A program made the position numbers and the translations under genes. Shown one piece after another: positions 930-35,722 of a stretch of 64,000 nucleotides of DNA (positions are counted from its first letter, which is position 1; each line of letters begins with the position of its first letter). The notes below the pieces were generated by a model. It made no database searches. It worked only from the letters and a program-made list of their open reading frames with translations, and was not told the origin of the DNA. Source of the stretch: Schmidtea polychroa (taxonomy: Eukaryota). The stretch is taken from positions 24,058,001-24,122,000 of the forward strand of contig CM097885.1 of the NCBI GenBank assembly GCA_044892525.1, given 5' to 3'.

Positions 930-1122
930 CAACCAATTACAATTGGTAAATAAATTGGTGAGTGAATTTACACGCCAACCACCACTATAGAGAACGTATC
1001 TCAGTGGTGTTTGGTGTATATGTGATGTATTTGTGTGTTAATTTTATTTTTCTACCACTTTCTCACCTTCTATATAAATGATTTTATTCATTAAAACATT
1101 AAAATTTAAAGCGCAGGTAAGT
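930..1122 (+). promoter_or_regulatory. Putative Pol II promoter plus first-exon splice donor (the Polinton target site)
   Basis: CCAAT/ATTGG boxes ~931-959, TATATAAA ~1071-1078, CAG|GTAAGT at 1114-1122; repeated at ~29250-29445, ~30750-30941 and inverted at ~55262-55450. Confidence 0.4.
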
Positions 1123-2063
1123 AGTGTGGTTATATACCCAACCAAAACAGCCCCCTAACAAAAACATGCCTCCAAATCACTTAAGCTATTAGAAAAACAA
1201 CCTAAAACTTATACTTTTATAGTATTTTAACCCTATATTTTGAAAACAACCACCCTTAATGACTCTAACTGTTTTAATCTTTAAAGCCTCAAACTCAAAA
1301 GCTTCAAACTAAAAAGAGAATAGAAAAGAAAATGGCATTATGAAAAAGTTAGAGGGCTATTTGATCTTAATCAGATTATTGATTTTAAATTATATAAATT
1401 AAAAAATAAATGAAAAATAGTAAAACTGCTCTGAGGGGACAGTGGTATTTTTTTTTTTTTTCACTGTCCCCTCAACAGTTTTTTTTGATCCGGATCATTT
1501 TTTTTATTTATCAACCTCTTTCGTTTATCGAATCTCTTCCAATATACAAGCTGGCCAGACTCATACATCATTATCAATCCGATAATAGCAGCACACCTTA
1601 TTATTCGCTTCTCGCTCAAATACGATTTCATCGGCGTTTTAAGTGTGCTGCTCGAAAGTACAAATGAATTCGAAAGCTAATTCGAAAGAGGTCCGAAAAC
1701 AACTGAGAAATAAATGTGCACATTAAAGAATCGATCCGGGGGTGTTCGAAAGACAGGTGGCGATAATTACCGGTTCGCCACCATCACCCGTTTCAATATT
1801 TTTTTTTTCATATTTATGTTTAAAAAATAATTAATTAATAAAAAAATAAAATAAAATAAAATAAATAAAATAAAATATACAAGTACTTTATAAATATAAG
1901 ATACCCACACTATTTTCAATATTATTTTCAAAGTTTTAATATTATTTTATGTTGAAAAAAAAACTAACCTCAGATGTGATTTGAACCGCTAGCATTTTGA
2001 ACCACTGTGTCAGTCTAGACCACTGCGCCATCAAGGTTTGGATTTTTTGTCATTTTTTTAAAT
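1120..2063 (+). repeat. Left terminal inverted repeat of Polinton copy 1
   Basis: Near-perfect reverse complement of 14814-15748. Confidence 0.95.
1966..2037 (-). ncRNA. tRNA-like Pol III cassette 1 (left TIR, copy 1)
   Basis: Reverse complement of 14839-14910: A-box TGGCGCAGTGG, B-box GGTTCAAATC, then a T9 run. Confidence 0.6.
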
Positions 2064-2279
2064 AATCGATTCAAGTTCTTTTATTCTTTCCTGTAATTGT
2101 TTTATTTTATCTAATCTTTTCTCAGCTACTTCTACTGCATTCATGTAAAAATGTCGATACTTTTCATTCTCTACCGCCAACTCTTTAATGTATTCTAATG
2201 GTTCTTCTTCTCTTCTTTTTATTCTCTTAAGTTTAACTTCATTCAATTCATTTCTCATTCTTTCAATAAAGTCAATCAT
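2058..2279 (-). CDS. Small charged coiled-coil protein (73 aa), Polinton accessory
   Basis: AAAATG start context like the other element genes; E/K/R-rich helical sequence; stop at the inner TIR edge; identical in copy 2. Confidence 0.55.
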   Translation of the reverse strand: MIDFIERMRNELNEVKLKRIKRREEEPLEYIKELAVENEKYRHFYMNAVEVAEKRLDKIKQLQERIKELESII

Positions 2280-2365
2280 TTTTATAAATTATTTTTTTAT
2301 TGAATTCCCTTTTATTTTTATTTTTATTTTTCAACTTTTATTTTTATCAACTTTTATATATAAAA

Positions 2366-3658
2366 ATGAATAATATAAATCTTAAAATTCAAGAAAAAAA
2401 TAAATTAAATCTTGATTATAATAAAGAATTTACTCATGAAATTAAAAAAAATGATATTTTAAAAATCTCGCCAACTTCAGGATCTATTGCAAATTTAAAT
2501 CGTAGGGGTGATATAGTTTTTCAATCTCTTCAAACATCAAACCCAATAGATATTTGTATTGCCAAATTATATTACAAAGTAGAATTAGAAATTGAAGCAA
2601 ACAAAGATATAACCCTAGAAAATAATTTCTTTCCAAATTTATTCTCCAACATGAGATTAAAACTAGGATCATCAGAAATTGAAACTGTTTTGCACCCGGG
2701 AGTATATTCTACAATGTTAAATTTTATTTTGACTGGTTGTGATTATAAAAACGAATATGGTGAATTAACATGTTGGATTCCTGATGTTAATAAAGGGGAT
2801 TTAGATAAAGATGGTTTAGATGTAAACCATGGTTACCATAAAAGAGCTGAACTTTATAAATCTAAAAAATTTGAAGGTTATTTTGAAATAAAACACTTGT
2901 TTGGATTCCTTCAAAACTATAATCGTATACTTCATAATGTTTTTATAGAATTCATCTGTAATAGAGTAGAAGGTGATAAAAGATTGTTCTATGGAGCTGT
3001 AGATACAAAAGCTAAATTAAAATTATCAACACTTGAATTACATATACCTGAATGGACATTAAACCCACATTCTGAGATTAAACTCCTTGAAAGATTAAAT
3101 TCCAACAAGTCTATAAATGTAAATTATTTAAATAGAATCTGTAGTGAATTTAGTATGACAGAGGGTTCAACATATTCTATAAAGGTAGCAAATTTAGCAT
3201 ACCGACCAAGATATATCTTGATTGGATTCAAAGAAACAGATTCATCTTTCCAAAAAAATAACAATCTATTTATTCAAAAGATTGGAGATGATAATTTAAA
3301 AACAATCCAAATTCAATTAAATAGTTCTTATTATCCAATAAATAGAATGGAATTTAATATTGAAAATAATGAAAACATATTCCCATATCTAAATTATATT
3401 GAAAAATGTTATGATTTCAAAGTTGAACCGCAATTAAGTTTAGAAGATTTCAAAAATTTATATTCTATATTTTGTATAAATGTATCAGACCAAGATGATC
3501 GATTAGCCATAAATAATGTTGATGTTACACTTCATGTAACAAAGGATTCTAATTTTAAAGCTAAAGTATATACATTAATATTAGAAGAAAAGAAAATAGA
3601 AATGAAATTATATGGTGGAAAGATTTCAATTATTGAAAATGTTAGGGGAGATTCTTAA
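2366..3658 (+). CDS. Major capsid protein (double jelly-roll, Polinton PY/hexon-like)
   Basis: 430 aa from ATG 2366 (the ORF track starts at an upstream TTG); motifs NNFFPNLFSNMRLKLG..EIE, PRYILIGF, QIQLNSSYYP, YSIFCINVS resemble Polinton MCPs. Confidence 0.85.
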   Translation: MNNINLKIQEKNKLNLDYNKEFTHEIKKNDILKISPTSGSIANLNRRGDIVFQSLQTSNPIDICIAKLYYKVELEIEANKDITLENNFFPNLFSNMRLKLGSSEIETVLHPGVYSTMLNFILTGCDYKNEYGELTCWIPDVNKGDLDKDGLDVNHGYHKRAELYKSKKFEGYFEIKHLFGFLQNYNRILHNVFIEFICNRVEGDKRLFYGAVDTKAKLKLSTLELHIPEWTLNPHSEIKLLERLNSNKSINVNYLNRICSEFSMTEGSTYSIKVANLAYRPRYILIGFKETDSSFQKNNNLFIQKIGDDNLKTIQIQLNSSYYPINRMEFNIENNENIFPYLNYIEKCYDFKVEPQLSLEDFKNLYSIFCINVSDQDDRLAINNVDVTLHVTKDSNFKAKVYTLILEEKKIEMKLYGGKISIIENVRGDS

Positions 3659-3675
3659 TATTTTAACATTTTAAA

Positions 3676-5088
3676 ATGTCTTTAAATAAACCCTATTGGA
3701 GATGTGAAACTTGTAATTGTCAAGTTACAAGACATCATAAAGCAAGTCATCTTAAAACTAAAAAACATACAGTAGGTGATCTAATTCCACGAGCTGGAGG
3801 CGATTTGCAATCTTCAAAAACAACATCTTCAATATTAAAACCTTTTACTACAGAAAAATATCCAGGTGAAAGACATTTATTTAAACACAACTATACTGGA
3901 CCAGGAACACGTCTAGATATTAGATTAGATGAAAATAATAATCCCAAACAAGGAGAAGAACCAATAAATAGAATTGATCAAGCAGCTTTAAAACATGACA
4001 TTGCATACAATTCAACAAATCTTAGAGATAGACATGTTGCAGATGTGAATTTAATACATGATTTAAATAGTATCCAAAATCCATCAACCCAAGAAAAGAT
4101 TCAAAGAGCCCTAGTTAAATTAGCAATGAAAGGTAAGATTTTCATAGGCTTAGGACACAGTCCGATCACCATGGGTGCAAGACTTCCTTGGAAAGCAAAA
4201 GATGTTGCTTATAAAAAGATTATCGAACAAGCAGAGATTGAAAGATCCCTCGAGAGTACAGCCAAGACTAGTTTACAAACCCCAACAGAATCAGAAATAA
4301 AATATGCAAAGGAATTACACCATGAATTTAGAAAAAATAAAAAATATTTAAAAGTTCAAGTACATGAAAAAGATCAAACATGGTCTGCAGATTTAGTCTT
4401 TATGCCCAAATCATCAGACCCTGAAAAATATAAAATAATTTTAACTGTAATAGATTTATATACAAGATTTGCTTTTGCAAGATGTTTAGAAAATAAAACA
4501 AGATATTCTATTACAGAAGCATTTGAAAATATATTTGAAGAAAATCAAAGAATCCCAAAATATTTATGGTGTGATAAAGGAACAGAATTTTATAACAAAG
4601 TTTTTACAAAGTTTTTAAATGAAAATGATATTAAATTATATTCAACAGAAAACGAAGGAAAAGCAGTCGTAGTTGAAAGATTAAATAGAACATTAAAAAA
4701 TAAAATGTGGAAATATTTTACTGCTATTGGAAAACAAAAATGGAACAATGAATTGTTACAAAAGATTGTAAATGAATATAATAATGATGTACATAGTTCT
4801 ATAAAATTAACACCTTTCAATGCTTCCATGAAGCCTGAAACCATTAAAGTGGTAAATATTGAAAATGATGTTATTGAAAAACCAAAGTTTAAAATTGGTG
4901 ACCGAGTAAGAATATTTAAATATAAAAATAAATTTGAAAAAGGATTCACAGCAAAATGGACAAATGAAATTTTTATTATAAATAAAATACATTATACAAC
5001 TCCAATAACATATAGCATCTTTGATTTAAATAATGAAAAAATATTAGGTAGATTTTATAATAATGAACTACAGAAAACAGATTTTTAA
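3676..5088 (+). CDS. Fusion protein: N-terminal Zn finger + parvovirus-type phospholipase A2 (PLA2X) + retroviral-like DDE integrase
   Basis: CETC..H..TKKH finger; HNYTGPGT Ca-binding loop and DQAALKHDIAY catalytic HD; integrase WSADLVFM, LWCDKGTEFYN, VERLNRTLK; C-terminal KFKIGDRVRI module. Confidence 0.92.
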   Translation: MSLNKPYWRCETCNCQVTRHHKASHLKTKKHTVGDLIPRAGGDLQSSKTTSSILKPFTTEKYPGERHLFKHNYTGPGTRLDIRLDENNNPKQGEEPINRIDQAALKHDIAYNSTNLRDRHVADVNLIHDLNSIQNPSTQEKIQRALVKLAMKGKIFIGLGHSPITMGARLPWKAKDVAYKKIIEQAEIERSLESTAKTSLQTPTESEIKYAKELHHEFRKNKKYLKVQVHEKDQTWSADLVFMPKSSDPEKYKIILTVIDLYTRFAFARCLENKTRYSITEAFENIFEENQRIPKYLWCDKGTEFYNKVFTKFLNENDIKLYSTENEGKAVVVERLNRTLKNKMWKYFTAIGKQKWNNELLQKIVNEYNNDVHSSIKLTPFNASMKPETIKVVNIENDVIEKPKFKIGDRVRIFKYKNKFEKGFTAKWTNEIFIINKIHYTTPITYSIFDLNNEKILGRFYNNELQKTDF

Positions 5089-5099
5089 GTCGACAAGCC

Positions 5100-5906
5100 C
5101 TAAAACAAACTTTTCCATATTTCAGCTTCTTCTCTATCCAAATAAATATAATTATATTTTTCTTTCCAATGATTATCAACAAACATATCAAACATATTCT
5201 TATCAGGTTCAACATTTGAAAATAAATCATTATAAATCATATTCTTATCACGGCGATCTAATTTAAAAAATATAAAACAATTGGAATTATTTCTTATTGA
5301 ATTTTTATCTAAAGCATAATATGTTTGAGATATATAAATAACATTACAATTATTATGTCGACCTCGTGTAAAGTAACTCTTTTGAATCTCTTGATTTTTC
5401 ATATTAACAACATCATCAAATATAACTAGATTCTTTTTATCTTTAGGAAGTAAATCACAATGTAAAACATCTTCAGGTTTATTAGAGAATAAAACTTGAA
5501 TTGCCTCCTGCCCTTCTTCACAAATATAATCATTTTTATTACTAATATCTGATTCTAAAATCTTTTCCTTATACCAATCAACCATATCACAAGGTTGAAA
5601 AACTTCTTCAGGACACCTATGTTGATTTTTAAAAATATCAATTATTGCTTTTTTAGTTAATTTATTTTCAAATCCACATTTCAAAAGTTGTAATTCTGGT
5701 TGATTTATGGTTGTAGAATAAAAGATTAAATTATTATAATCTAAAAAATCATCTTCAAGTAACATTCTCAAAACAAGTACATTCTTTCCACATCCAGAAG
5801 AACCAACAATTAATAATCTAAAATTATCAGGAAATACTTTATTATTAAATTTACTCTTATGTCTATTTAAAATTGGTTTCCAAATTATTGGACTTCGTAC
5901 ATCCAT
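5100..5906 (-). CDS. A32/FtsK-like DNA packaging ATPase
   Basis: Walker A LLIVGSSGCGKN, Walker B LVIFDD, FTRGRHNN, YISQTYY, IRNN; first ATG at 5906. Confidence 0.92.
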   Translation of the reverse strand: MDVRSPIIWKPILNRHKSKFNNKVFPDNFRLLIVGSSGCGKNVLVLRMLLEDDFLDYNNLIFYSTTINQPELQLLKCGFENKLTKKAIIDIFKNQHRCPEEVFQPCDMVDWYKEKILESDISNKNDYICEEGQEAIQVLFSNKPEDVLHCDLLPKDKKNLVIFDDVVNMKNQEIQKSYFTRGRHNNCNVIYISQTYYALDKNSIRNNSNCFIFFKLDRRDKNMIYNDLFSNVEPDKNMFDMFVDNHWKEKYNYIYLDREEAEIWKSLF

Positions 5907-5921
5907 TTTGTTTATTATAAA

Positions 5922-6515
5922 ATGACAACTGAAGAATCTTTGCAAGAATTAATAAATTCAAATAAAAATAAATCAGTAGTAATTGATGGTAAAAAATATT
6001 TTATTGGAAAACATGTAAAAGAACAAGTTAGAGCGAAGCTCCACGAAGCTAAAGAAGGTGGCATTCTTCCATTAGCTCCTTTAATACCTGCAATCATTGC
6101 TGGTTTATCAGGTGCTGCTGGAATAGCTGGAGGAATTGCAACTACAGTTCAAAAAGCTAAAGAATCTCAAAAGACAGACCTAGAAAAAGAAAAACTACAA
6201 ACTGAAATCGATTCAATGAAGAAGGTAGGGCAAGCTAAAGGGGGAGTGTCCGTTGGAAAGGGTCTCTATCTTAATCCATATGAGGGGAGTCGGCAAAAGT
6301 CTCAGGGGACTCTGTCCAAGGGAAAGGGTCTCTATCTTGATCCTTATAAAGGTAGAGGTTTAAATGATTTTTTAAAAAATCAAATTTCTACATCTGAATC
6401 TTTATCTTCAAAAGATAAAGAAGATTTAAAAAAAATATGTAAATCTTTAAAGAATGGATGCCTATGTAAAACTCAAAATGGTAAAGGATTATACTTGAAG
6501 CCCTTCGAACTATGA
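5922..6515 (+). CDS. Adenovirus pX/mu-like core or membrane-active precursor with GKGLYL repeats
   Basis: EGG-ILPLAPLIPAIIAGL..AAGIA resembles the adenovirus pX C-terminus (GG-ILPLLIPLIAAAIG..PGIA); three GKGLYLxP[YF] repeats. Confidence 0.65.
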   Translation: MTTEESLQELINSNKNKSVVIDGKKYFIGKHVKEQVRAKLHEAKEGGILPLAPLIPAIIAGLSGAAGIAGGIATTVQKAKESQKTDLEKEKLQTEIDSMKKVGQAKGGVSVGKGLYLNPYEGSRQKSQGTLSKGKGLYLDPYKGRGLNDFLKNQISTSESLSSKDKEDLKKICKSLKNGCLCKTQNGKGLYLKPFEL

Positions 6516-6537
6516 TACCATTTTTGATACCATTAAA

Positions 6538-7419
6538 ATGGTATATGAAGAAAGATTAGCACTTTTAAAAAAATTACAATCAGAACAAGATAAATATAAT
6601 AAAAAAGATACAACTCAACATGCTGAATCTATAATATTAAATGAGGTAATAACACAACAACAGGGGCCAACAATTAAAGCTATAAAAGAGTTGGAAGATT
6701 TCAATGAGCAAGCAAAATTTAAAGAGTTAGAAGATAAAAAACAAAAAATAAAAGAACTAGAGTGGCAGGATAAAGAAAAAGAATCCAGTGAAAACCATCC
6801 TGAAAGAAATCAAAGAAAACGCAGAAGAATTACTAATGTGGAAGAAGAAGAAATGTTTTTAAAAACAAAACCTCTTAAAGTTGATCCTAAAATTAGAGAT
6901 GATTTACCTCCTTCAATTAGACCCACATTTAATACTAATACTGAAGGATATCAAATAATAACAATTAATAAACAAAACTTTACTTTATATTCAAATTCAG
7001 AAAATAAATCACGTATTCATTCACAAAATGTTTATAATAATGAATATTTAGACTTTGAATTTACAGATGATTTTTATAGATTACTTTGTGGATATTCTTC
7101 AGATGATGTTGAAGAAATTAAAAAATATTTAAATTTAATAAGATTAATAAGAGCTAGTTCTAAAGCAAAATATATTCAAGATTTAAAGAATTATTTAAAT
7201 AAAAATGAAAAGGGTTATGTTGTTACAGAGGGAGAGGGATTATTTATTGAAGGTGGTAAACCAAATCCCATCAATCTTTTTATTGAATTAAGAAAACTAT
7301 TAGCTGCAAGGAAAGCAGGACATAATAATTTAGATTCTGATATTTTAAAGATTTCTAAAGATTTGTTAAAACAAGGAATAATTTCAAAAGATAAATTTAA
7401 TAAGTATACGAAGTTATAA
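6538..7419 (+). CDS. Conserved Polinton hypothetical protein (293 aa)
   Basis: Coiled-coil N-terminus; C-terminal GEGL...LRKLLAARKAGHNN...LLKQGII motif of the kind I recall from animal Maverick ORFs. Confidence 0.7.
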   Translation: MVYEERLALLKKLQSEQDKYNKKDTTQHAESIILNEVITQQQGPTIKAIKELEDFNEQAKFKELEDKKQKIKELEWQDKEKESSENHPERNQRKRRRITNVEEEEMFLKTKPLKVDPKIRDDLPPSIRPTFNTNTEGYQIITINKQNFTLYSNSENKSRIHSQNVYNNEYLDFEFTDDFYRLLCGYSSDDVEEIKKYLNLIRLIRASSKAKYIQDLKNYLNKNEKGYVVTEGEGLFIEGGKPNPINLFIELRKLLAARKAGHNNLDSDILKISKDLLKQGIISKDKFNKYTKL

Positions 7420-7441
7420 ATACGAAGTTTTAAAATACAAA

Positions 7442-7906
7442 ATGACTCCTTCAATATTAGATTTTTTAAAAACATTTGGAATAAATGCAAAAACAAATTT
7501 TGATTTAAAAGATTATGCAAATTATTTAAATTTAAAAATTAAAATATTAATGAATGATGAATTATCAAGTCTGGAGAGTCCCCTGAATATAATAATCAAT
7601 TATCAAAATTCAAATGAAAAAGGATCTCATTGGGTTTGTATATATAAGAAATCTATCTACTTTGATTCTTTTGGGATTAAACCTACTAAAGAAGTTGAAG
7701 ATTATCTCTTGAGGGGTTCTCCGATTGATTCCCCAAATGGTTATACTTTTAACTCTTTACAAGTTCAACCTTTGAATACTAAAATATGTGGTATTTTAAG
7801 TTTATATGTTTTGTATAGATTGAATAAGGAAGAGGGAAAGGGGCATACGCATGATTTTGAATCTATAATTCAAGAAATTTATAATGATCTAGAATCTCTA
7901 CTATAA
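7442..7906 (+). CDS. Adenain-like cysteine maturation protease
   Basis: GSHWV (His), YFDSFG (Asp), QVQPLNTKICG (oxyanion Gln and catalytic Cys). Confidence 0.92.
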   Translation: MTPSILDFLKTFGINAKTNFDLKDYANYLNLKIKILMNDELSSLESPLNIIINYQNSNEKGSHWVCIYKKSIYFDSFGIKPTKEVEDYLLRGSPIDSPNGYTFNSLQVQPLNTKICGILSLYVLYRLNKEEGKGHTHDFESIIQEIYNDLESLL

Positions 7907-7992
7907 GGATTTTTACTATAAGGATTTTTACTATATGAATTTACTACTAAAGAAATGGAGCTTCACAACCCTCCGGAAGATAATTTAAAAAA

Positions 7993-8718
7993 ATGGTAAA
8001 CATAATGTCAGATAAATATTCAAGAACTTTATCTATAAATTCAAAAGAATCAGAGTTTACTATAAACTTTCAAGATTCAATTAAATTAGATCAAAATTTA
8101 AATTATGAATTGGGGCTATTATGGTTTTGTGCTTATAATACTATTTTTAATATAACTAAAGATAATAATAAATTTACTATTCGAACTCGTGATGGGCATA
8201 AACCAGAAATTATAACAATAGAACCTAGGGCATATGAGATAAAAGATTTAAATGATATACTTTCTAAAAAAACAAATGAAGGTATTAAAATTAAAATGGA
8301 TATACCAACTTCAAAATGTGTAATGACTTTGAAGAATATAAAAATTAGTTTTTTAGATAATTGTTTCTTTCACACAGTTTTAGGATTTAAACCTATGGAT
8401 ATAACAATAAAAGAAGATAAAATAATAACATCAGAACATATTATAAAAATAATAAATACAAACACAATAAATATTCATTGCGATTGTATAACAGGTTCTT
8501 ATAATAATGGTAAACAAACAAATGTTTTATATTCCTTTCCCTCAAACACAGTTCCTATGGGATATAAAATAGTTGAAAGAATGAATCCTCCAAATTATTT
8601 ACCTTTATGTAGAAAATATATAATGGATATTAATTTTAAAATTCTTAATCAAGAAGGAGAATTGATTGATTTTAATGGAGAAGAGATTTCAATGTATTTA
8701 CATTTGAAACAGGTTTGA
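7993..8718 (+). CDS. Minor capsid protein / penton (single jelly-roll)
   Basis: FTINFQDSIKLD...YELGL, NIHCDCITGSYNNG, LYSF, YLPL, LNQEGELIDFNGE..SMYLHL; start may be 8005. Confidence 0.85.
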   Translation: MVNIMSDKYSRTLSINSKESEFTINFQDSIKLDQNLNYELGLLWFCAYNTIFNITKDNNKFTIRTRDGHKPEIITIEPRAYEIKDLNDILSKKTNEGIKIKMDIPTSKCVMTLKNIKISFLDNCFFHTVLGFKPMDITIKEDKIITSEHIIKIINTNTINIHCDCITGSYNNGKQTNVLYSFPSNTVPMGYKIVERMNPPNYLPLCRKYIMDINFKILNQEGELIDFNGEEISMYLHLKQV

Positions 8719-8742
8719 AGATTCATTTTAAATTATTAATAA

Positions 8743-9753
8743 ATGAGTTCTTATATTCCATGTAATAGAGGTGGTGGAACAATAAAAACAGGGTTTAATA
8801 CAGAAGAAATATTAACTTTAACAGAAAATAAATATATTAATGAAAGAGGTGATTCAATGAAGGGTGATTTAATTTTAAATGGACACAAGATAAAAGAATT
8901 ATCTTTTCCAACTGATGAAGCTGATGCAGTTAATAAGAAATATGTAGATGGTGTTAAAAAATATACTGATTTAACAACAACAAGAATTGAAAGTTCATTA
9001 ACAACAAAAATTGATTCAATGGAATCAAAGCTTAATAATATCGAACAACGATTTAATGATAAATTTGACAAGTTACAAAGTCTGTTAACTGAACAAGTTG
9101 TAAAGTTAAATACTGCTATATTAAATTCTAAAGATAAACAAATTATGAATACTAAATTTAATAAAATATATAATATAATAAATGAGATGATTACATCATT
9201 TAATAAAAGAATTTCAAATTTAGAGTCTCATGGAACACACATTAACACCACACATAGTATTAGAAAAAGAGCTGCTGAATTAGAACAGAATAAAACATTA
9301 TTACCCCATACATATAAACATTTTATAGAACCAAGTTTAATAACAACAAACCGTAAAGAATGGGGTGTTTTTATGGTTGTAAAAATTATTGATCCTTATT
9401 TCTTTTTGTTTGATGATGATAATGAAAGAATGAAATGGTTTGTGAAATGTGATTATAATAGTAAGCTTGAAAAGGGTGATGTTATAATGACTAGTTATGA
9501 TTTACCACACGGAGATTGGTATGTTAATACTCATTCACATGGACTACATAAAGTTAAAAGTAAGAATATTCATTTTTCTAGTTCACTTGTACAATATATA
9601 GATTTAATATTTTATGAAAAAAAGGTTGATGTTGATGAAGTTCGTAAAGCATTGAGAGAATTGTATAAAGATATCCTCTCAACAAGAGTTTCTTTTGATA
9701 TCCGAGTATTGGTGCCAGATGGTGCTCAGAAGAATAAAGTCTTATTTTTTTAA
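8743..9753 (+). CDS. Fibre-like protein (tail-fibre base motif, coiled-coil stalk, unknown head)
   Basis: GDSMKGDLILNGHKIKELSFPTDEADAVNKKYVD motif, then heptad-rich residues ~75-165. Confidence 0.65.
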   Translation: MSSYIPCNRGGGTIKTGFNTEEILTLTENKYINERGDSMKGDLILNGHKIKELSFPTDEADAVNKKYVDGVKKYTDLTTTRIESSLTTKIDSMESKLNNIEQRFNDKFDKLQSLLTEQVVKLNTAILNSKDKQIMNTKFNKIYNIINEMITSFNKRISNLESHGTHINTTHSIRKRAAELEQNKTLLPHTYKHFIEPSLITTNRKEWGVFMVVKIIDPYFFLFDDDNERMKWFVKCDYNSKLEKGDVIMTSYDLPHGDWYVNTHSHGLHKVKSKNIHFSSSLVQYIDLIFYEKKVDVDEVRKALRELYKDILSTRVSFDIRVLVPDGAQKNKVLFF

Positions 9754-9761
9754 TTATTAAA

Positions 9762-10358
9762 ATGGAAGAAGTAAGAGAAGAAAAAATTTACCCAGAATTG
9801 AGATCATCAGGATATTATTCTTCCAAGGCCTCGGCTCCCACAGAACTTGAAATTATGAGAGTAAAAGAATTTAAATCAGAAACCTTACATTTACAAAATT
9901 TATTAAAGCATTATAAAAAAATTAAAAATAGATGGAATAAAGGGAATACAGTTTTAAAAGTTATAGGTTATTCTTTAGGATTTGCATCTGCAATATTAAC
10001 AGTTATTTTACCCATAACTTTACCAGTTGTTACTCTTGCACCTGTAATACTTGGAAGTATTTCTGTGGCTGATGGTTTCTTAACTGAAATAGTTTCATTA
10101 TCTTATACTTCTAAAAAGAAATGTTTATATAGAGAAGTTTGTTTATCAATAGAATTAGGAATCTCTAAATTATTTTTATTTCAATTAAAAGCTTTGGAAG
10201 ATGGAATCCTGACAGACGAAGAAATAATGAAATCAAATCAAATAATACAAGATATAAAGAATGAGGTTATAAGATTAAAAAGGGAGGGCATGGTGGCTAA
10301 TGTTATAAGTAATAAAAAAACATCTCGAGAAAAATGGTTAAAGAATTCTTACTTATAA
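9762..10358 (+). CDS. Polinton membrane protein (hydrophobic hairpin; possibly the adintovirus 'GasderminX' class)
   Basis: IYPEL..SAP N-terminus, basic helix, long hydrophobic segment VIGYSLGFASAILTVILPITLPVVTLAPVILGSISVA, KALEDGILTDEE. Confidence 0.6.
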   Translation: MEEVREEKIYPELRSSGYYSSKASAPTELEIMRVKEFKSETLHLQNLLKHYKKIKNRWNKGNTVLKVIGYSLGFASAILTVILPITLPVVTLAPVILGSISVADGFLTEIVSLSYTSKKKCLYREVCLSIELGISKLFLFQLKALEDGILTDEEIMKSNQIIQDIKNEVIRLKREGMVANVISNKKTSREKWLKNSYL

Positions 10359-10451
10359 AATGGGTGTATTTTTAAAAAGTAGATCAGGTTGCTATAGTTG
10401 CTTAAATTAATTGTCGACATTTTATTATTAAAAAATTAAATATCGTTGGTT

Positions 10452-13400
10452 TCAGTTATGGTTGAAAGCCAACCTATGAATCATTAATTTATGATCTTTA
10501 AATTCTTTATCACTTAGACCTTTTATATATTCAGGATCAGTATTAAAATATTTAAGTTCTAAACATATAGGATTAAAAACTTGAGAATATAAAGGTTTCT
10601 CGATTTCTCTCTCGGGATAAATAATTTCAACATTATAAATATCAAGATCAGTAATCTTTGTATCATATAACTTATTCAACTTTTCTAGATTTTTTATTAT
10701 AGGGATTAAATTATTTCCAATAGGTAGAGTTGTCTTTAAATCACTTAGTATGAATCTCTTATCATCATAATTTGATAATGATACTTTTTGAGATTCTATC
10801 AAGTGAATATCATGGTTTTCACTTTTAAGTTGATGTATTTCATCAATTTTATCTTTATGATTTGGATTCAATGTATCTATATAATCTTGATGAGAAAGAT
10901 TCTTTGCCACCACTCTCTGTATTCCTTTACATCTGTTATCCTTTACAGGTTTTTCTTCTTTAGGAAATATAGGATATCTATGTGTAATGGTTTCTTCTGT
11001 TTCTGGAGTTTTAAATATAAATGATCTAGTTATAAATTCAGGGTTTCTAAATGTTTCGTATGAATATTGTTTAGCACGAATAAATATTCCATTTTCTATA
11101 GGAGTAAAAGGTTTTTCATCTTTAAACGAAAATAGTTCTCCAGATGAATTTATTAAATTTGAAAGTATAGGATTTTCTTTCATATCTTTTTGTAAATCAT
11201 GAGTTCTTATTGTTAAAAACATTGAATCTGTATCCATTGCATGCATTGATATATTTGCTCCGTATATAGGTTGTAAGATGTTATAATATGTTTCATACAT
11301 TTGTAATTTTGAAAGTTCTAAAATTGTAAACCCTATAAATATTGGTTTGTTATATGTTTTCTCATAATTTTTTAATTCGACTGCAGTAAGATTTTCAGAA
11401 AATACTTGTGCGTTTTTAAATGTAGGCTTTCCTAGCATGCGATTATAACGCTTAATATCTTTGGTAGTATTTGTTAGGAGTTCAATATGAGTATATTTAT
11501 CAACATTCTCCATTGTTTTCCCAAAGACTGAATTGTTTAAAATTTTATAATTATTATCTTTAAAAAGATTACCTTCTCTTTTTGCAATGTTTCGGCACCT
11601 AATGTTCTCCTCGATAAAAGCTTTCATGAATGGAGCTTGTTTAAATCTTATGACACTATGAACTTTTTTTAATATCATTCCTCGTGAAAGATAAAATTGG
11701 AGGAGTCTATAGTGACAAAGATAAAACCTTCGATCTGTTTGATCACAAAGAAGTTTCATTGTTGGAGGTTTATCTTGTGAGATTTGCCATTCAGAAAGTT
11801 CGTTGATATCAATCTTTCTTCTTATGGGAGCTAAAGGAAAATATCTTGTTCCTGATTTTATATCATCTGGATAGTCGAGGTCGCATTCTATAAAGTAACC
11901 TATTGGAGAATCTTTCGATGTTGAAAGTATTTCTTTCATAAGGTCATCTGTTGGGTTCTCTATTTCAGTGAAATCACCCATTGGTAAAAATTGAGTCATA
12001 ATTCCTGAATATAAAGCTGTTGCATCTATATAAAGTATAAATATAGGATTTTTCATTGTTTCTAATAATTCTTTTAATTCCTCATTGTTAATTTTCATAT
12101 ATGGATCATCAGGGTGTTTAGATAGTCTTCGGCTAGTAGTTATTGCATTTCTAGCTTTTATTTCTCTATTCCCCATTACTGAAGAGACTCCTCCTCTAAT
12201 GTTTGTTTTAATTTGGTTAAACATATCGAGGTTAGTTAAAAGATCTATAATTTTATCACCTTCTTCTATATTTGAAGTCCAAATGGTATATAACATAGTA
12301 TCCCAAGCTAAAGAGGGTGCAGTTATATAATTATAAGGTTTAAGAACAAAAGATTTTGTAAATTCTTCAAAGCAATCTGCTAGAATATAAACATCCAAGG
12401 ATAAATACATACTTGTATATTCTCCTAAAGTTTTACACTTGAATAATTCCCACATTTTATTTGCTCGAGAATATTCTTGATTTGTAATATGATTTTTTTG
12501 AAGTTGTGAATAGAAATCTTCTTGGCTAGGAAGACATGTTTCATTATATCTTTCAAACGAGTCAACATAGTCATAAGGATATATTCCTTTTGCTAAACAT
12601 GTAGGATATTCTTCTAGAGGAATATTATTTTTTTCCAAGAATTCTCGAGTGATTTTAAAATTTTCTGGTTTCATTGTTTTTGCTACTGCATCTAAAGACA
12701 TTTGGAGAAAGTTTAACGAGTCTATAAATTTTAATTTTCCATATTCAATTGATTTATATTTTTCCTTTGTTAAGCCGATAACTTTGAAAGAGTTTTTAGC
12801 ATTTGCTGCGAGGTGTTTAATAAATAGATGTATGTCATATCCAAAAAGATTATTAAATATAACAGGTATAAATTTAGGAGTATGGCAATTAAGATTGCAA
12901 TTTTTATGAGCTGCTCCTCGATAATTATTTTCCTTTTTTAAATGATCATGATCTATAACTTTTTCATCAGGAAGAATATTCTGTTTACACATCCAACAGT
13001 TGGAAGTATTTTCATATTCTTGTTGTTGTTGATTAGAAATATTTTGAGGATACTTTGTTTTTAATATTTTAAATATTTCATGTTCTAGATCATTTATATT
13101 TTTAGTAAAATGATTCAAGACTTCTTCAGGGGTACCTCCTAGAATTGAATATTCTCTAGATTCTATGAGTTCAGGATAATTACTTTTAAATAATAATTTA
13201 TAAGCAGATGGTAATTGTTTAGTTTTTTTAACACTATTAGGTTTATTTCTTTTTCTTAGAAAGGCTTTCATCCTCTCTGGTTTCATCTTCTCTCCTGAGG
13301 AGTTCCATAAATCCATGAGTTTATTTTTTTCTATTATTTTTAAATATTGATAAACCAAATCTTGTTTATGGTTTATAGATTCAAAGTCACCATAAAGAAC

Positions 13401-14732
13401 TCCAACTGTTTGTAGTAAATTTGAAAAGTTTTTAAAATACATCTTGGGATTATTAGGCATTTTAATTAAAGCTGGATCATCTTTTTCACAAAATCTTGTA
13501 TGTTTAATCATAGAGATTTTAGTTGTTGAATAATGAAGACATCTTTTACATGTTCCTCCTCCACTAGTTGGATTCTCTGGAGATGTAAAAGCTTGAAAGT
13601 TTTTTATTAAAACATAATGTTGATTATTTTCTTGTTCCAAGATTAAAAGATATATCTCGTTGTCCTGTGCTCCGTTATCCTTGGTTCCACTATCTGAAAT
13701 ATAAATTGGAATAATTTCTTTCCCTATAACATGTTCATAAATATTAAGTTTAAGATTATTTAATTTTTCAAATTCTGGAATGTCTTCTAGTTTCATTGGG
13801 TGTTTGAATCCTTTGGGAAATATTAATTCATTTTCATATTGTTTGTATTTTGAAACTCTTTGGGGATTTGTTGCTTGAGGATGTAAATGTGCAAGTATTG
13901 ACCAGATGAAACATTTGTTATCATTATTCTGTACATTTATAACATTTTTAGATTTAAAGGGTGTAGGAATATAAGATTTAGGATTGGGTGGTAATCCTCT
14001 CCAATAATCAATCACTAAAGTTTGGAAAGAGTTGAATACTAAGTTTGAATCTCCTAATTCATTTTCTACTTCCTCTTGTTTTGCTTCTGCTGCTTTAATT
14101 ATTTCTTTGATGGTTTTATCAAATCCTTTAATTGAAAATAAATATTTAAAAGGTATTCCAATTTCAACATCTAAGGGTGTTGTCTTTTCTTCTGCTCCTC
14201 GCCAGTATTTTGCTTTGATTATAATTTTATATTTTATAACATTATACCTTGTCGGTTTATAAATTTTTAAAGCTTCAGTGAAAGAATTTTTAATATTTTT
14301 TTTATTTTTATTTATATATTCTCCAGGAGTTGCAGGCCCATTAATTTTTAATTGAAATTCATCTATATGATTAAAATTATCCCAGTTATACTTTTCTCTT
14401 TCAACATGATCAGGCTCTCCTTCTGAATGACATTCCTCATCGTCAGAATTTTGTTTTTTATTTTTACATTCTTTTATATGTTCTAAATAATAGAAATTTA
14501 GTTTTGTTGAAAAGTTACAATGAGGACATGTAAATATTTCTCTATTTTTCCCGATACAATTTTCAAAATGTTTATTATATCCAGAATGTAGAAATCTTCC
14601 TTTACATTTAAGACAAAGTTTTGAATTTGTATCATTAAGATTATTTTCTTTTAATAAATGAGCTTTCGATTTTAAGTGAGAAATTAATCCAGTTTTATTT
14701 TTAAAAACTTTATTGCAAATATTACAATTCAT
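10452..14732 (-). CDS. polB: Protein-primed family B DNA polymerase with N-terminal Zn fingers and an inserted endonuclease VII domain
   Basis: DNKCFIWSILA; ExoI YGDFES; EndoVII CWMC..DHDHL..YRGAAHKNCN; ExoII F(N/H)NLFGYD; KGIYPYDY; motif A YIDATALY, motif B KILNNSVFGKT, motif C MDTDS; start 14732 preferred because copy 2 lacks the upstream ATG. Confidence 0.96.
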   Translation of the reverse strand: MNCNICNKVFKNKTGLISHLKSKAHLLKENNLNDTNSKLCLKCKGRFLHSGYNKHFENCIGKNREIFTCPHCNFSTKLNFYYLEHIKECKNKKQNSDDEECHSEGEPDHVEREKYNWDNFNHIDEFQLKINGPATPGEYINKNKKNIKNSFTEALKIYKPTRYNVIKYKIIIKAKYWRGAEEKTTPLDVEIGIPFKYLFSIKGFDKTIKEIIKAAEAKQEEVENELGDSNLVFNSFQTLVIDYWRGLPPNPKSYIPTPFKSKNVINVQNNDNKCFIWSILAHLHPQATNPQRVSKYKQYENELIFPKGFKHPMKLEDIPEFEKLNNLKLNIYEHVIGKEIIPIYISDSGTKDNGAQDNEIYLLILEQENNQHYVLIKNFQAFTSPENPTSGGGTCKRCLHYSTTKISMIKHTRFCEKDDPALIKMPNNPKMYFKNFSNLLQTVGVLYGDFESINHKQDLVYQYLKIIEKNKLMDLWNSSGEKMKPERMKAFLRKRNKPNSVKKTKQLPSAYKLLFKSNYPELIESREYSILGGTPEEVLNHFTKNINDLEHEIFKILKTKYPQNISNQQQQEYENTSNCWMCKQNILPDEKVIDHDHLKKENNYRGAAHKNCNLNCHTPKFIPVIFNNLFGYDIHLFIKHLAANAKNSFKVIGLTKEKYKSIEYGKLKFIDSLNFLQMSLDAVAKTMKPENFKITREFLEKNNIPLEEYPTCLAKGIYPYDYVDSFERYNETCLPSQEDFYSQLQKNHITNQEYSRANKMWELFKCKTLGEYTSMYLSLDVYILADCFEEFTKSFVLKPYNYITAPSLAWDTMLYTIWTSNIEEGDKIIDLLTNLDMFNQIKTNIRGGVSSVMGNREIKARNAITTSRRLSKHPDDPYMKINNEELKELLETMKNPIFILYIDATALYSGIMTQFLPMGDFTEIENPTDDLMKEILSTSKDSPIGYFIECDLDYPDDIKSGTRYFPLAPIRRKIDINELSEWQISQDKPPTMKLLCDQTDRRFYLCHYRLLQFYLSRGMILKKVHSVIRFKQAPFMKAFIEENIRCRNIAKREGNLFKDNNYKILNNSVFGKTMENVDKYTHIELLTNTTKDIKRYNRMLGKPTFKNAQVFSENLTAVELKNYEKTYNKPIFIGFTILELSKLQMYETYYNILQPIYGANISMHAMDTDSMFLTIRTHDLQKDMKENPILSNLINSSGELFSFKDEKPFTPIENGIFIRAKQYSYETFRNPEFITRSFIFKTPETEETITHRYPIFPKEEKPVKDNRCKGIQRVVAKNLSHQDYIDTLNPNHKDKIDEIHQLKSENHDIHLIESQKVSLSNYDDKRFILSDLKTTLPIGNNLIPIIKNLEKLNKLYDTKITDLDIYNVEIIYPEREIEKPLYSQVFNPICLELKYFNTDPEYIKGLSDKEFKDHKLMIHRLAFNHN

Positions 14733-14838
14733 TTTTAGAAAAAAATTTTTTATTGGATACCCTGTTTTCATTTTATTTTTTAAGATTTATATTATTCATT
14801 TTTTATAATAAAAATTTAAAAAATGACAAAAAATCCAA

Positions 14839-14910
14839 ACCTTGATGGCGCAGTGGGCTAGACTGACACAGTGGTTCAAAATGCTAGCGGTTCAAATCAC
14901 ATCTGAGGTT
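14839..14910 (+). ncRNA. tRNA-like Pol III cassette 1 (right TIR, copy 1)
   Basis: A-box TGGCGCAGTGG 14846-14856, B-box GGTTCAAATC 14889-14898, acceptor-like stem ACCTTG/TGAGGT, 72 nt, T9 terminator at 14913-14921. Confidence 0.62.
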
Positions 14911-15088
14911 AGTTTTTTTTTCAACATAAAATAATATTAAAAATTTGAAAATAATATTGAAAATAGTGTGGGTATCTTATATTTATAAAGTACTTGTATA
15001 TTTTATTTTATTTATTTTATTTTATTTTATTTTTTTATTAATTAATTATTTTTTAAACATAAATATGAAAAAAAAAATATTGAAACGG

Positions 15089-15161
15089 GTGATGGTGGCG
15101 AACCGGTAATTATCGCCACCTGTCTTTCGAACACCCCCGGATCGATTCTTTAATGTGCACA
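15089..15161 (+). ncRNA. tRNA-like cassette 2 (right TIR, copy 1; mirrored in every TIR)
   Basis: A-box TGGCGAACCGG, D-stem GGTGGCGA/TCGCCACC, TGT-CTTTCGA-ACA anticodon-like arm, B-box-like GGATCGATTC. Confidence 0.45.
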
Positions 15162-17594
15162 TTTATTTCTCAGTTGTTTTCGGACCTCTTTCGAATTCGC
15201 TTTCGAATTCATTTGTACTTTCGAGCAGCACACTTAAAACGCCGATGAAATCGTATTCGAGCGAATAATAAGGTGTGCTGCTATTATCGGATTGATTCTG
15301 ATGTATGAGTCTGGCCAGCTTGTATATTGGAAGAGATTCGATAAACGAAAGAGATTGATAAATAAAAAAAATGATCCGGATCAAAAAAAACTGTTGAGGG
15401 GACAGTGAAAAAAAAAAAAATACCACTGTCCCCTCAGAGCAGTTTTACTATTTTTCATTTATTTTTTAATTTATATAATTTAAAATCAATAATCTGATAA
15501 AGATCAAATAGCCCTCTAACTTTTTCATAATGCCATTTTCTTTTCTCTTCTCTTTTTAGTTTGAAGCTTTTGAGTTTGAGGCTTTAAAGATTAAAACAGT
15601 TAGAGTCATTAAGGGTGGTTGTTTTCAAAATATAGGGTTAAAATACTATAAAAGTATAAGTTTTAGGTTGTTTTTCTAATAGCTTAAGTGATTTGGAGGC
15701 ATGTTTTTGTTGGGGGGCTGTTTTGGTTGGGTATATAACCACACTACTCAGGTAAGTTTGTGTGTTTCCATAATACAGTCAGTCTATTGAATTTCTTTGT
15801 ATAATATAACTTCTTATATATTGAAAGTAAATAAAAGAAAGAATTTTAAATTTATTATGACAAAGTTTGAATAATTGCAAGCTGTTGAGAAATGAAATTT
15901 TTTATGAAATAATTTTGTAAGATAATTTTAAATAGAAAGTTTTATGAAATAATTTTCAAAGGCAAAATTTAATACAAATTTTTATTAAATTAATTTCAAA
16001 GATCAATTTCAATTAATTTCTTCTACTAAAAATATTAGTAAACAAGGGTTATATTTGGTAAATAAGTAAATGAAGGGCTAAATTTTAAAAACTAGTAATA
16101 AACTTTGAAAGATAATGAGAATAATTTAATTTTAAGTAAATTAAGAGTCTAAAAATTGATCAAATTAAATTATGGGCTTTTATTTTTAAAAAAAAGTAAT
16201 CATTGTTCAAAGATTTTAAAAATTTAAGTAATATTTTTAAATTAAGTAAAATAAATAAAAATTTTAAATTAAAGTAAATTTTTAAATAAGTTAATTAAAG
16301 TAATAATTTTAATTTTATAATCAAAAAGTTTGAATGATAGGCAGCTTTTGAGAAATGAAAATCTTTAATGAAAGGTTTTATGAAATAATTTTTAAAGAAA
16401 ATTTAGATGCAAATTTCGCAAATAATAATTATAATAATAATAATAATAATAATAATAACTCAATCAAATACTTAACAACTAAAGACTTTATTAACAACAC
16501 ATAAAAAATAACTATAATAATAAATAAAAATTAACAAGACAGTGATAAAGATACAAAATTTATTCATCATTATATATTTGCTTATAATAAGCTTTTCTTA
16601 ATTCAGGAAGAAGAATATTTCTTAAATTCTTGTCAAAATCTAAAATTCAACCAGATACCTACAACCAAAATACTAACAAATATGTACTATCTAGGTATTA
16701 TTTACATTCAGATAATAAATACCAACTATCAGCTGCTAAGGATTTTTAACTAGGTACTAACAAATAAGTACCAAATACTTACAACTAAGAACTTACAACC
16801 AGATAGCTGCTACCATGTATTAACAACCAACAAACAACTAGCTACTAACAGATTAGTTTCAAAGATTATTTACTAACAATCAACAACAACCAACTAACTA
16901 GGTACCAGATACCAAATACTAAGTAACTCTCAAACAACCAGATACTAAAGACTTACAACCAGGTATTTACAATCAACTAAATATTCTTCATTGTATTTTA
17001 TCAAATGCTTTTTAAATAAATTAACCTTTTATATGTATTAAATTCAAAAATATATTTAATTACAATCAGTAGAAAAACATTTTCTGTCTAAGTCTAAATT
17101 TAACAAAAATATTGATTTTCGTCAAAAATGAATAATTATCAACTCAAACACTTTAAAACACCACGTTAAATTGAAAATAATTCAAATATTTTAAAATAAC
17201 AACGAAAGACTATAGAATTCTAATTTTTATTCACAAAAGATCTGCTCAACTTTTAATTGATTACTAATATTCGTACTGCCTTAAAACATTTATTAATGAA
17301 ATGTAATAAGATTATATTAATTGAAAATAGTCAATAATTTGCAATTTGTCATTAATCAGTTGTTGAAATCTAATTTTATGTTAACATGAAGAAAAAATCT
17401 TTGCCTATTTCACAAAGTAATTATAGCCTCTTGACATGAGTAAACTTTCTTATTAGGAATTCATTAACAAGTCATCTATATAGGGAAGAAGGCTTTCTAC
17501 ATTCATTCAATAACAGACAAATGTGAAATATAAACAGTAATATTAAATATAATAATGAATATTGGAACTCCATGTCGATTCCAATGCTGACACT

Positions 17595-30938: not shown

Positions 30939-31864
30939 AGTAGTGTGGTTATATACCCAACCAAAACAGCCCCCTAACAAAAACATGCCTCCAAATCACT
31001 TAAGCTATTAGAAAAACAACCTAAAACTTATACTTTTATAGTATTTTAACCCTATATTTTGAAAACAACCACCCTTAATGACTCTAACTGTTTTAATCTT
31101 TAAAGCCTCAAACTCAAAAGCTTCAAACTAAAAAGAGAATAGAAAAGAAAATGGCATTATGAAAAAGTTAGAGGGCTATTTGATCTTAATCAGATTATTG
31201 ATTTTAAATTATATAAATTAAAAAATAAATGAAAAATAGTAAAACTGCTCTGAGGGGACAGTGGTATTTTTTTTTTCACTGTCCCCTCAACAGTTTTTTT
31301 TGATCCGGATCATTTTTTTTATTTATCAACCTCTTTCGTTTATCGAATCTCTTCCAATATACAAGCTGGCCAGACTCATACATCATTATCAATCCGATAA
31401 TAGCAGCACACCTTATTATTCGCTTCTCGCTCGAATACGATTTCATCGGCGTTTTAAGTGTGCTGCTCGAAAGTACAAATGAATTCGAAAGCTAATTCGA
31501 AAGAGGTCCGAAAACAACTGAGAAATAAATGTGCACATTAAAGAATCGATCCGGGGGTGTTCGAAAGACAGGTGGCGATAATTACCGGTTCGCCACCATC
31601 ACCCGTTTCAATATTTTTTTTTTCATATTTATGTTTAAAAAATAATTAATTAATAAAAAAATAAAATAAAATAAAATATACAAGTACTTTATAAATATAA
31701 GATACCCACACTATTTTCAATATTATTTTCAAATTTTTAATATTATTTTATGTTGAAAAAAAAACTAACCTCAGATGTGATTTGAACCGCTAGCATTTTG
31801 AACCACTGTGTCAGTCTAGCCCACTGCGCCATCAAGGTTTGGATTTTTTGTCATTTTTTTAAAT
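30939..31864 (+). repeat. Left TIR of Polinton copy 2
   Basis: Near-identical to 1120-2063. Confidence 0.93.
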
Positions 31865-32080
31865 AATCGATTCAAGTTCTTTTATTCTTTCCTGTAATTG
31901 TTTTATTTTATCTAATCTTTTCTCAGCTACTTCTACTGCATTCATGTAAAAATGTCGATACTTTTCATTCTCTACCGCCAACTCTTTAATGTATTCTAAT
32001 GGTTCTTCTTCTCTTCTTTTTATTCTCTTAAGTTTAACTTCATTCAATTCATTTCTCATTCTTTCAATAAAGTCAATCAT
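31859..32080 (-). CDS. Small coiled-coil protein (copy 2)
   Basis: Identical to 2058-2279. Confidence 0.55.
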   Translation of the reverse strand: MIDFIERMRNELNEVKLKRIKRREEEPLEYIKELAVENEKYRHFYMNAVEVAEKRLDKIKQLQERIKELESII

Positions 32081-32166
32081 TTTTATAAATTATTTTTTTA
32101 TTGAATTCCCTTTTATTTTTATTTTTATTTTTCAACTTTTATTTTTATCAACTTTTATATATAAAA

Positions 32167-33459
32167 ATGAATAATATAAATCTTAAAATTCAAGAAAAAA
32201 ATAAATTAAATCTTGATTATAATAAAGAATTTACTCATGAAATTAAAAAAAATGATATTTTAAAAATCTCGCCAACTTCAGGATCTATTGCAAACTTAAA
32301 TCGTAGGGGTGATATAGTTTTTCAATCTCTTCAAACATCAAACCCAATAGATATTTGTATTGCCAAATTATATTACAAAGTAGAATTAGAAATTGAAGCA
32401 AACAAAGATATAACCCTAGAAAATAATTTCTTTCCAAATTTATTCTCCAACATGAGATTAAAACTAGGATCATCAGAAATTGAAACTGTTTTGCACCCGG
32501 GAGTATATTCTACAATGTTAAATTTTATTTTGACTGGTTGTGATTATAAAAACGAATATGGTGAATTAACATGTTGGATTCCTGATGTTAATAAAGGGGA
32601 TTTAGATAAAGATGGTTTAGATGTAAACCATGGTTACCATAAAAGAGCTGAACTTTATAAATCTAAAAAATTTGAAGGTTATTTTGAAATAAAACACTTG
32701 TTTGGATTCCTTCAAAACTATAATCGTATACTTCATAATGTTTTTATAGAATTCATCTGTAATAGAGTAGAAGGTGATAAAAGATTGTTCTATGGAGCTG
32801 TAGATACAAAAGCTAAATTAAAATTATCAACACTTGAATTACATATACCTGAATGGACATTAAACCCACATTCTGAGATTAAACTCCTTGAAAGATTAAA
32901 TTCCAACAAGTCTATAAATGTAAATTATTTAAATAGAATCTGTAGTGAATTTAGTATGACAGAGGGTTCAACATATTCTATAAAGGTAGCAAATTTAGCA
33001 TACCGACCAAGATATATCTTGATTGGATTCAAAGAAACAGATTCATCTTTCCAAAAAAATAACAATCTATTTATTCAAAAGATTGGAGATGATAATTTAA
33101 AAACAATCCAAATTCAATTAAATAGTTCTTATTATCCAATAAATAGAATGGAATTTAATATTGAAAATAATGAAAACATATTCCCATATCTAAATTATAT
33201 TGAAAAATGTTATGATTTCAAAGTTGAACCGCAATTAAGTTTAGAAGATTTCAAAAATTTATATTCTATATTTTGTATAAATGTATCAGACCAAGATGAT
33301 CGATTAGCCATAAATAATGTTGATGTTACACTTCATGTAACAAAGGATTCTAATTTTAAAGCTAAAGTATATACATTAATATTAGAAGAAAAGAAAATAG
33401 AAATGAAATTATATGGTGGAAAGATTTCAATTATTGAAAATGTTAGGGGAGATTCTTAA
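32167..33459 (+). CDS. Major capsid protein (copy 2)
   Basis: Protein identical to copy 1. Confidence 0.85.
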   Translation: MNNINLKIQEKNKLNLDYNKEFTHEIKKNDILKISPTSGSIANLNRRGDIVFQSLQTSNPIDICIAKLYYKVELEIEANKDITLENNFFPNLFSNMRLKLGSSEIETVLHPGVYSTMLNFILTGCDYKNEYGELTCWIPDVNKGDLDKDGLDVNHGYHKRAELYKSKKFEGYFEIKHLFGFLQNYNRILHNVFIEFICNRVEGDKRLFYGAVDTKAKLKLSTLELHIPEWTLNPHSEIKLLERLNSNKSINVNYLNRICSEFSMTEGSTYSIKVANLAYRPRYILIGFKETDSSFQKNNNLFIQKIGDDNLKTIQIQLNSSYYPINRMEFNIENNENIFPYLNYIEKCYDFKVEPQLSLEDFKNLYSIFCINVSDQDDRLAINNVDVTLHVTKDSNFKAKVYTLILEEKKIEMKLYGGKISIIENVRGDS

Positions 33460-33476
33460 TATTTTAACATTTTAAA

Positions 33477-34889: not shown

Positions 34890-34900
34890 GTCGACAAGCC

Positions 34901-35707: not shown

Positions 35708-35722
35708 TTTGTTTATTATAAA

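Follow-up and report, generated by a model that had tools for sequence, protein, structure and literature searches.

A degenerate tRNA-like unit with RNA polymerase III promoter boxes in the terminal inverted repeats of a planarian Polinton: a possible docking unit beside a candidate RNA gene with a strong predicted fold

Two copies of one Polinton

The window, that is, the entire 64,000-nt stretch of DNA analyzed here, contains two copies of one Polinton and comes from an AT-rich genome of 781 Mb. The two elements and the genes identified in element 1 are listed below (C1 denotes the tRNA-like unit described in the next section).

1120..15748: Polinton element 1, bounded by AGTAGT termini; its terminal inverted repeats (TIRs) measure about 940 bp, and a 6-bp target duplication, CAGGTA, flanks it on either side
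2058..2279, minus strand: ORF of 73 aa without a known family, its end 20 bp ahead of the left C1
2366..3658, plus strand: double jelly-roll capsid gene (Pfam PF21738), head-to-head with the left C1 at a distance of about 330 bp
3676..5088, plus strand: rve integrase (Pfam), with a PLA2-like N-terminal domain, PF08398
5100..5906, minus strand: A32-like packaging ATPase (Pfam)
7442..7906, plus strand: 154-aa ORF, adenain-like protease candidate (atlas look-alikes with Peptidase_C5, score 0.96-0.97)
10452..14771, minus strand: protein-primed DNA polymerase B gene (pPolB; Pfam DNA_pol_B_2), its ATG 67 bp from C1, head-to-head
30939..45232: Polinton element 2, with the left flank of element 1, a different right flank, a variant right TIR and a split polymerase frame

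Long TIRs, AG termini and a 6-bp target duplication are hallmarks of Polintons/Mavericks, and element 1 displays all three along with the characteristic gene set, that is, pPolB, integrase, packaging ATPase, capsid and protease, identified with Pfam or, for the protease, through look-alikes; among the other unnamed ORFs of the element, no Pfam match to TBP was detected at E 0.1. Element 2 lacks a matching target duplication. Because it shares 10.7 kb with element 1 at 99.7% identity, left flank included (1-10750 against 29821-40552), and differs on the right side, element 2 is a local duplicate or recombinant rather than an independent insertion, so that the four TIRs in the window do not represent four independent cases. 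A first look at the genome yielded 3249 candidates for the capsid, 1472 for the cassette and 1114 for the terminus, which are rough figures rather than copy numbers; the family is very young and abundant.

Several other features of the window lie outside the elements. Element 2 is surrounded by a large interrupted inverted repeat (15749-26500 and 50180-63117) that includes split hAT-like ORFs (24602-25829 and 58552-59779). An intronless gene for a 301-aa TFIIB-family protein is located amid repeats (48450-49355, minus strand); its identification as Brf was rejected, the closest solved structure being TFIIB (E 7e-34). A 63-bp fragment at 62014-62076 matches the gene for the host large-subunit rRNA at 97% identity.

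A tRNA-like cassette in the TIRs

14839..14921, plus strand: C1 in the right-hand TIR of element 1, with its A-box at 14846-14856, the inner A/B-like repeat at 14864-14880, the B-box at 14889-14898 and the T9 run at 14913-14921
1955..2037, minus strand: C1 in the left TIR of element 1, one substitution
31756..31838, minus strand: C1 in the left TIR of element 2, with no difference from 14839-14921
44315..44396, plus strand: C1 variant in the right TIR of element 2

The A-box of C1, T(G/A)GCGCAGTGG, begins at unit position 8, and the B-box, GGTTCAAATC, at position 51, followed by a T8-9 run at position 75. With an A-box near +8, a B-box about 44 nt further on and an oligo-T end, C1 has the layout of a type-2 RNA polymerase III (Pol III) gene. 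The window has 4 matches to the generic pattern of A-box, B-box and T-run, whereas 200 dinucleotide shuffles averaged 0.005, one of them having a single match; this bears out the four 72-nt units with both boxes and a T8-9 run that the initial annotation had reported, as does their orientation, which is outward in all four.

The middle of the unit, previously taken for diverging spacer, does vary but is not free: an additional copy resembling the A-box and another resembling the B-box form an internal repeat there, and this repeat slips, having been gained in loci L017 and L101 and lost in L095, L104 and L129. The variant at 44315 had been said to change the A-box only at its degenerate purine R, and this change, as well as the preserved B-box and T-run, is indeed seen; the 5' end of this variant is, however, also altered. 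The paired ends ascribed to every unit are missing from it too; the most frequent form, which accounts for 72 of the 116 copies, has six end pairs. The conclusion that C1 is not a working tRNA holds: ARAGORN reported 0 tRNAs (its output at a lowered threshold was noise), Rfam yielded no family at threshold over 14600-15800, and the stems are mostly unpaired.

Conservation of the boxes and loss of the tRNA fold

All 30 genomic loci picked with the cassette are inside Polinton TIRs, and not the free host tRNA-SINE outside Polintons that the initial annotation had set against its own reading. Among 30 TIRs picked by the terminus, that is, loci not chosen for the cassette, C1 was present in each, once in 19 and twice in tandem in 11; the tandem units are 208-233 bp long, and their inner and outer copies often differ in variant. 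The sample of older copies consisted of the 20 most distinct capsid matches fetched, with capsids 91-96% identical; C1 was found in 13 of these and U2, the neighboring unit described below, in 12, whereas the 7 copies without C1 showed no TIR match beside the capsid. In several older copies that keep C1 and U2, unrelated sequence stands in place of the outer terminal module.

Beyond this family, the search gave little. Capsids 74% and 49% identical, used as queries for diverged Polinton families in the same genome, returned the same family and were discarded; 39 metagenome loci (98.7 kb), most of which stop short of the element ends, contained 0 A/B/T units and 0 tRNAs; and viral contigs yielded no capsid relative and no match to one 22-letter motif, which fits only the longer-loop form of C1.

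The alignment of TIR copies that had been suggested as a check comprised 137 copies of C1, 116 of them with distinct surroundings; 30 loci in the sample had been chosen as exact matches, and three further matches (two repeat deletions and one truncation) were left out. Among the 29 box columns, 1 has an allele shared by 3 or more of the 116 copies, compared with 23 among the 45 columns elsewhere in the unit (Fisher p 9e-6), a comparison within one young family whose columns are not independent events, variants being shared by descent, recombined and inherited in blocks. The only variable box column is the degenerate purine R of the A-box (1/11 columns); the inner B-like box (0/8) and the B-box (0/10) have none, and the latter shows zero variants in 116 copies. 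Low variation is not unique to the boxes because the 27 AT-rich bases past the T-run vary as little (2/27 columns, p 0.60). Taken together, the TIR context of all 30 loci and the boxes that vary less than the rest of the unit support the earlier view of a tRNA-derived, type-2 Pol III cassette forming part of the TIR.

The RNA shape fared differently. The fold z-scores of three C1 variants against shuffles are +0.75, +0.45 and +0.92; the paired cells number 609/812 in the acceptor, 231/580 in the T-stem, 117/464 in the D-stem and 104/580 in the anticodon stem, so that no cloverleaf with D, anticodon and T stems is formed, and the 5' and 3' ends combine freely and vary without compensation. What C1 has conserved is its DNA signals, not the shape of its RNA.

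The ends of the older copies (L092, L095, L097-L099, L101, L103, L108-L110) include several unrelated terminal modules that occupy the terminal 210-310 bp. An inverted copy of the terminal 25-29 bases is located 210-310 bp inward in 14 of 17 non-dominant ends and in none of the first 6 of the 54 dominant ends listed; this arrangement suggests possible terminal panhandles and swapping of ends.

U2, a neighboring unit with a strong predicted fold

15086..15470, plus strand: U2, predicted Pol III-type RNA gene; A-box-like motif 15096-15106, B-box 15139-15148, T-rich end at about 15445-15466
1398..1790, minus strand: U2 copy in the left TIR of element 1
31220..31605, minus strand: U2 copy in the left-hand TIR of element 2, limits approximate, with its A-box at 31595
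44561..44950, plus strand: U2 copy in the right-hand TIR of element 2, limits approximate, with its A-box at 44571

With a length of about 370-385 nt, U2 lies 170 bp outward of C1 on the same strand; the two occur together in 60/60 loci picked by the cassette or by the terminus. The predicted fold of 15086-15470 has an energy of -132 kcal/mol, with z -10.33 for the outward strand and -6.27 for the inward one. A diverse selection of 40 among the 80 distinct forms shows pairing in 98.9% of 3917 cells and a change on both sides in 2 of 99 pairs, the common one-sided changes being between G-U and Watson-Crick pairs; the shuffle control of these counts is inflated by the relatedness of the copies, and the strand-neutral count of G-U against A-C is 8 to 2 (p 0.11). 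The B-box follows the A-box-like motif by 43-44 nt and, across 101 copies, varies only at free or degenerate positions. A relaxed box pattern, the A-box part of which was fixed only once U2 had been seen, has 8 matches in the window, all of them C1 or U2 (shuffle mean 0.1), and matches 11 of 5000 shuffles of U2.

The genome contains 1087 U2 candidates; the possibility that U2 is a separate high-copy repeat was considered and rejected, given the 1114 candidates for the terminus and flat cover in sequencing run X4. The VA-like RNA that had been proposed for C1 fits U2 better, and on its predicted fold and boxes U2 appears to be the likelier viral-type RNA gene.

Sequencing-run contigs over the TIR

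Runs X1-X3 and X8-X10 come from two studies, with X3, X8 and X9 from one sample; their RNA type is a guess, and their contigs carry neither strand nor ends. Contigs of X1, X2 and X3 cover pPolB, C1 and U2, and their figures peak on U2, although contig depth cannot rank the parts of a stretch. X8 and X9 provided one contig each, both inside U2 only (15141-15420 and 15080-15253), and X10, also guessed to be RNA, none over the region; the absence of C1 cover in X8 and X9 is not evidence because short RNAs are lost from contigs. Since X4 is flat, with the TIR only about 2x the gene, U2 is not over-represented in that run. Relative to X4 and compared with pPolB, X6, a run of unrecorded type, is raised about 15-fold on C1, 10-fold on U2 and 5-fold on the terminus; a loose end in X6 is presumably the Tn5 adapter. 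The contig cover and the X6/X4 profile are a weak hint of expression or open ends.

Related tRNA-like units and the host rDNA spacer

A second tRNA-like unit, T2, first found in the older copy L103, passes the Rfam tRNA cut-off (32.4 bits) and has 746 candidates in the genome; a third, T3, lies beside T2 in 28 of 30 loci picked by T2. In the terminus-picked TIRs, T2 is present in 11/30 and T3 in 2/30. Both share the box spacing and T-run of C1, with unrelated middles. The segment of about 490 bp that carries T3 and T2 is optional, located either between the capsid gene and C1 or beyond U2, and is absent from both elements in the window.

This segment and an array of 243-bp subrepeats in the spacer of the host rDNA are 92-97% identical. 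An antisense array, T4-T3-T2-T2-T2, was found in the rDNA intergenic spacer of two of the three units examined (L145:4842-5890 and L147:5970-7140), and all 12 of the 12 T4 loci fetched are rDNA spacer; C1 and U2 had no match in the three rDNA units, and an rDNA origin of U2 was rejected for this reason. The third unit, L144, is without a 2.6-kb segment, the edge of which is the edge of the piece shared with the Polinton. The rDNA spacer is tentatively favored as the source of T2 and T3 because it has the longer array. Just outside element 2 (45488-45691, minus strand), a T4-like copy has decayed to 82% and has a changed B-box.

Common descent of C1 with T2 and T3 is unsupported because their likeness scores (41-62) do not rise above the level reached by two real host tRNAs (61). 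All tRNA genes in the 30 loci fetched through the own-genome tRNA search were for Lys or Arg, and no donor was identified; the tRNA-Lys genes form a 424-bp tandem array (G000:C4:76658343-76669437, L031-L053), and the tRNA-Arg genes form 278-bp arrays on small contigs. Judging from the tandem C1 copies and the T2 and T3 units of the terminus-picked TIRs, the number of C1-type units seems to matter more than unit sequence.

A putative Pol III docking unit and the alternatives

The reading of C1 that we favor, at about even probability, is that of a worn-down tRNA gene in the TIRs that likely serves as a docking unit for TFIIIC, TFIIIB and Pol III and keeps the ends of the element open. A tRNA gene would have become fixed in the TIRs and retained its A-box, B-box, spacing and T-run while losing the tRNA fold; it would then act as a DNA docking site and, when occupied, would hold the ends open beside the divergent pPolB and capsid promoters. 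The TFIIIC/insulator idea of the initial annotation fits the anatomy of C1, and the kept terminator also fits an RNA product; factor binding, transcription of C1 or U2 and the barrier effect are what we infer from this anatomy. Planarian Polintons are subject to PIWI-dependent silencing, according to the part of PMC8532177 covered here, so that a barrier or decoy would have something to oppose.

C1 would thereby be the first half of an outward-facing, two-part Pol III module, with U2 as the second half, predicted to produce, from its own boxes, a long, strongly paired Pol III RNA. The broadest version, a Pol III programme at both Polinton ends in which docking units, some of them traded with the rDNA spacer, drive an abundant, dsRNA-rich RNA of 370-385 nt that blunts host small-RNA/dsRNA defences, is tentative and, as a whole, rather doubtful; if true, the element would be an integrated Polinton with an RNA of the VA/EBER kind, and this could account in part for the burst of the family.

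Alternatively, C1 might mainly serve U2, the tandem upstream Pol III units concentrating polymerase and raising the output of a U2 RNA that is the functional product, either a dsRNA-rich decoy or a small-RNA precursor. The invariable co-occurrence of the two units on one strand, the strong outward fold and pair-preserving variation of U2, its B-box that varies only where it can, and the X8 and X9 contigs inside U2 are compatible with such a role, and help would be plausible given that the A-box of U2 departs from the usual pattern. We nevertheless consider this unlikely: the T8-9 run between C1 and U2 means that no joint transcript is expected, X3, X8 and X9 are one sample of guessed RNA, the strand-neutral pair count is small, and the A-box pattern by which U2 was found had been relaxed to suit it.

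It is also rather improbable that C1 is a functionless passenger, a degenerate tRNA-like repeat of host origin, as T2 and T3 seem to be, that is simply copied with the TIR. The optional segment nearly identical to the rDNA-spacer array shows the kind of traffic that this would involve, the family is very young, and the downstream flank of C1 is as conserved as the boxes; yet C1 itself has no match in the three rDNA units, the spreading variants avoid the boxes inside it, and the T4-like piece outside the Polinton, a single case, has decayed, B-box included.

That the C1 transcript, of about 75 nt, is a VA-like or tRNA-mimic decoy is improbable. The promoter and terminator are complete, the commonest form has its six end pairs, and contigs of X1, X2 and X3 cover the unit, but there is no fold above shuffles, the ends vary without compensation, with at least 9 copies losing most of the end pairs, there is no Rfam match, and C1 is less than half the size of VA RNA, with none of its domains. 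Finally, a host tRNA-SINE inserted by chance into the TIR is very improbable despite the tRNA-type head and the 1472 first-look candidates: the 30 fetched loci, which are the best matches only and leave room for a few free copies, are all in TIR context, 1087 U2 candidates at 41 C1 per 30 TIRs would roughly give about 1490 copies, near 1472, and neither a target duplication nor a tail was seen.

Comparison with known systems

The docking unit favored here, and U2 beside it, resemble several known systems in part. The initial annotation had considered Pol III units in Polintons to be undescribed. For degenerate units in Polinton TIRs this stands, none having been found in the literature searched (supplementary tables S11-S12 of PMC12220804, which may include ncRNA matches from animal elements, lay outside the search); neither was a Polinton Pol III RNA gene, VA RNA or Pol III-based insulation, nor anything on point regarding the rDNA-spacer link. 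The claim does not extend to tRNA genes as such: Polinton-like viruses carry them (PMC12220804), and tRNA-type sequences have been flagged in MELD viruses (PMC8502044). In the parts of these sources covered here, such tRNAs were identified with Rfam or ARAGORN and interpreted as functional, whereas C1 is invisible to both, stemless and located in the TIR.

VA RNA I and II of adenoviruses have intragenic A- and B-boxes, an oligo-T end and a proposed tRNA origin, and VA RNA is about 160 nt long, with a terminal stem, an apical stem and a central domain with GGGU-ACCC (PMC7589676, in the portion consulted). C1 shares with these the promoter type, the oligo-T end and a related virus lineage, but is 72 nt long and unfolded; because it shows no fold (z +0.45 to +0.92) and no kept stems, it is a poor VA-RNA analogue, and the VA-like RNA initially proposed for it was not borne out, given also the largely unpaired D, T and anticodon stems and the uncompensated ends. 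U2, at about 370-385 nt, has both the intragenic A/B boxes and a long paired fold. Unlike the VA genes, C1 and U2 sit in TIRs, two or more per element, and neither matched a VA family in Rfam at E up to 10 over 14600-15800; U2 resembles VA RNA in build and is not a member of the VA family.

Among cellular systems, tDNAs are Pol III-dependent heterochromatin barriers, as described for the fission yeast cen1 tDNA-Ala, where, in the part of the source covered here, occupancy matters rather than the RNA (PMC2040200). Like that tDNA, C1 is a type-2 Pol III unit at a domain border; it differs in coding for no tRNA and in riding a mobile element at both ends, and its barrier role is putative.

The TMERs of Gammaherpesvirus 68 and the EBERs of EBV are viral Pol III units in which a tRNA-like part stands beside hairpins or Pol III genes occur in tandem, a layout similar to that of C1 and U2; a TMER is, however, one transcript with a folded tRNA head, whereas C1 is unfolded and separated from U2 by a T8-9 run. 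Cassandra retrotransposons, which carry 5S sequence in their LTRs, are similar in that a piece of a host Pol III gene has become a fixed part of a mobile element's terminal repeats and is linked to rDNA; Cassandra is a retroelement with a type-1 promoter, whereas the present element is DNA virus-like and has type-2 units.

A Pol III module in the TIR, if real, would show how an element keeps its ends active in a silencing host, and the tRNA-like units common to the Polinton and the rDNA spacer would provide a traceable source of viral Pol III genes. A position near the root of the adenoviruses has been proposed for Polintons, and the module would bear on whether VA-like RNAs predate or parallel the adenoviruses.
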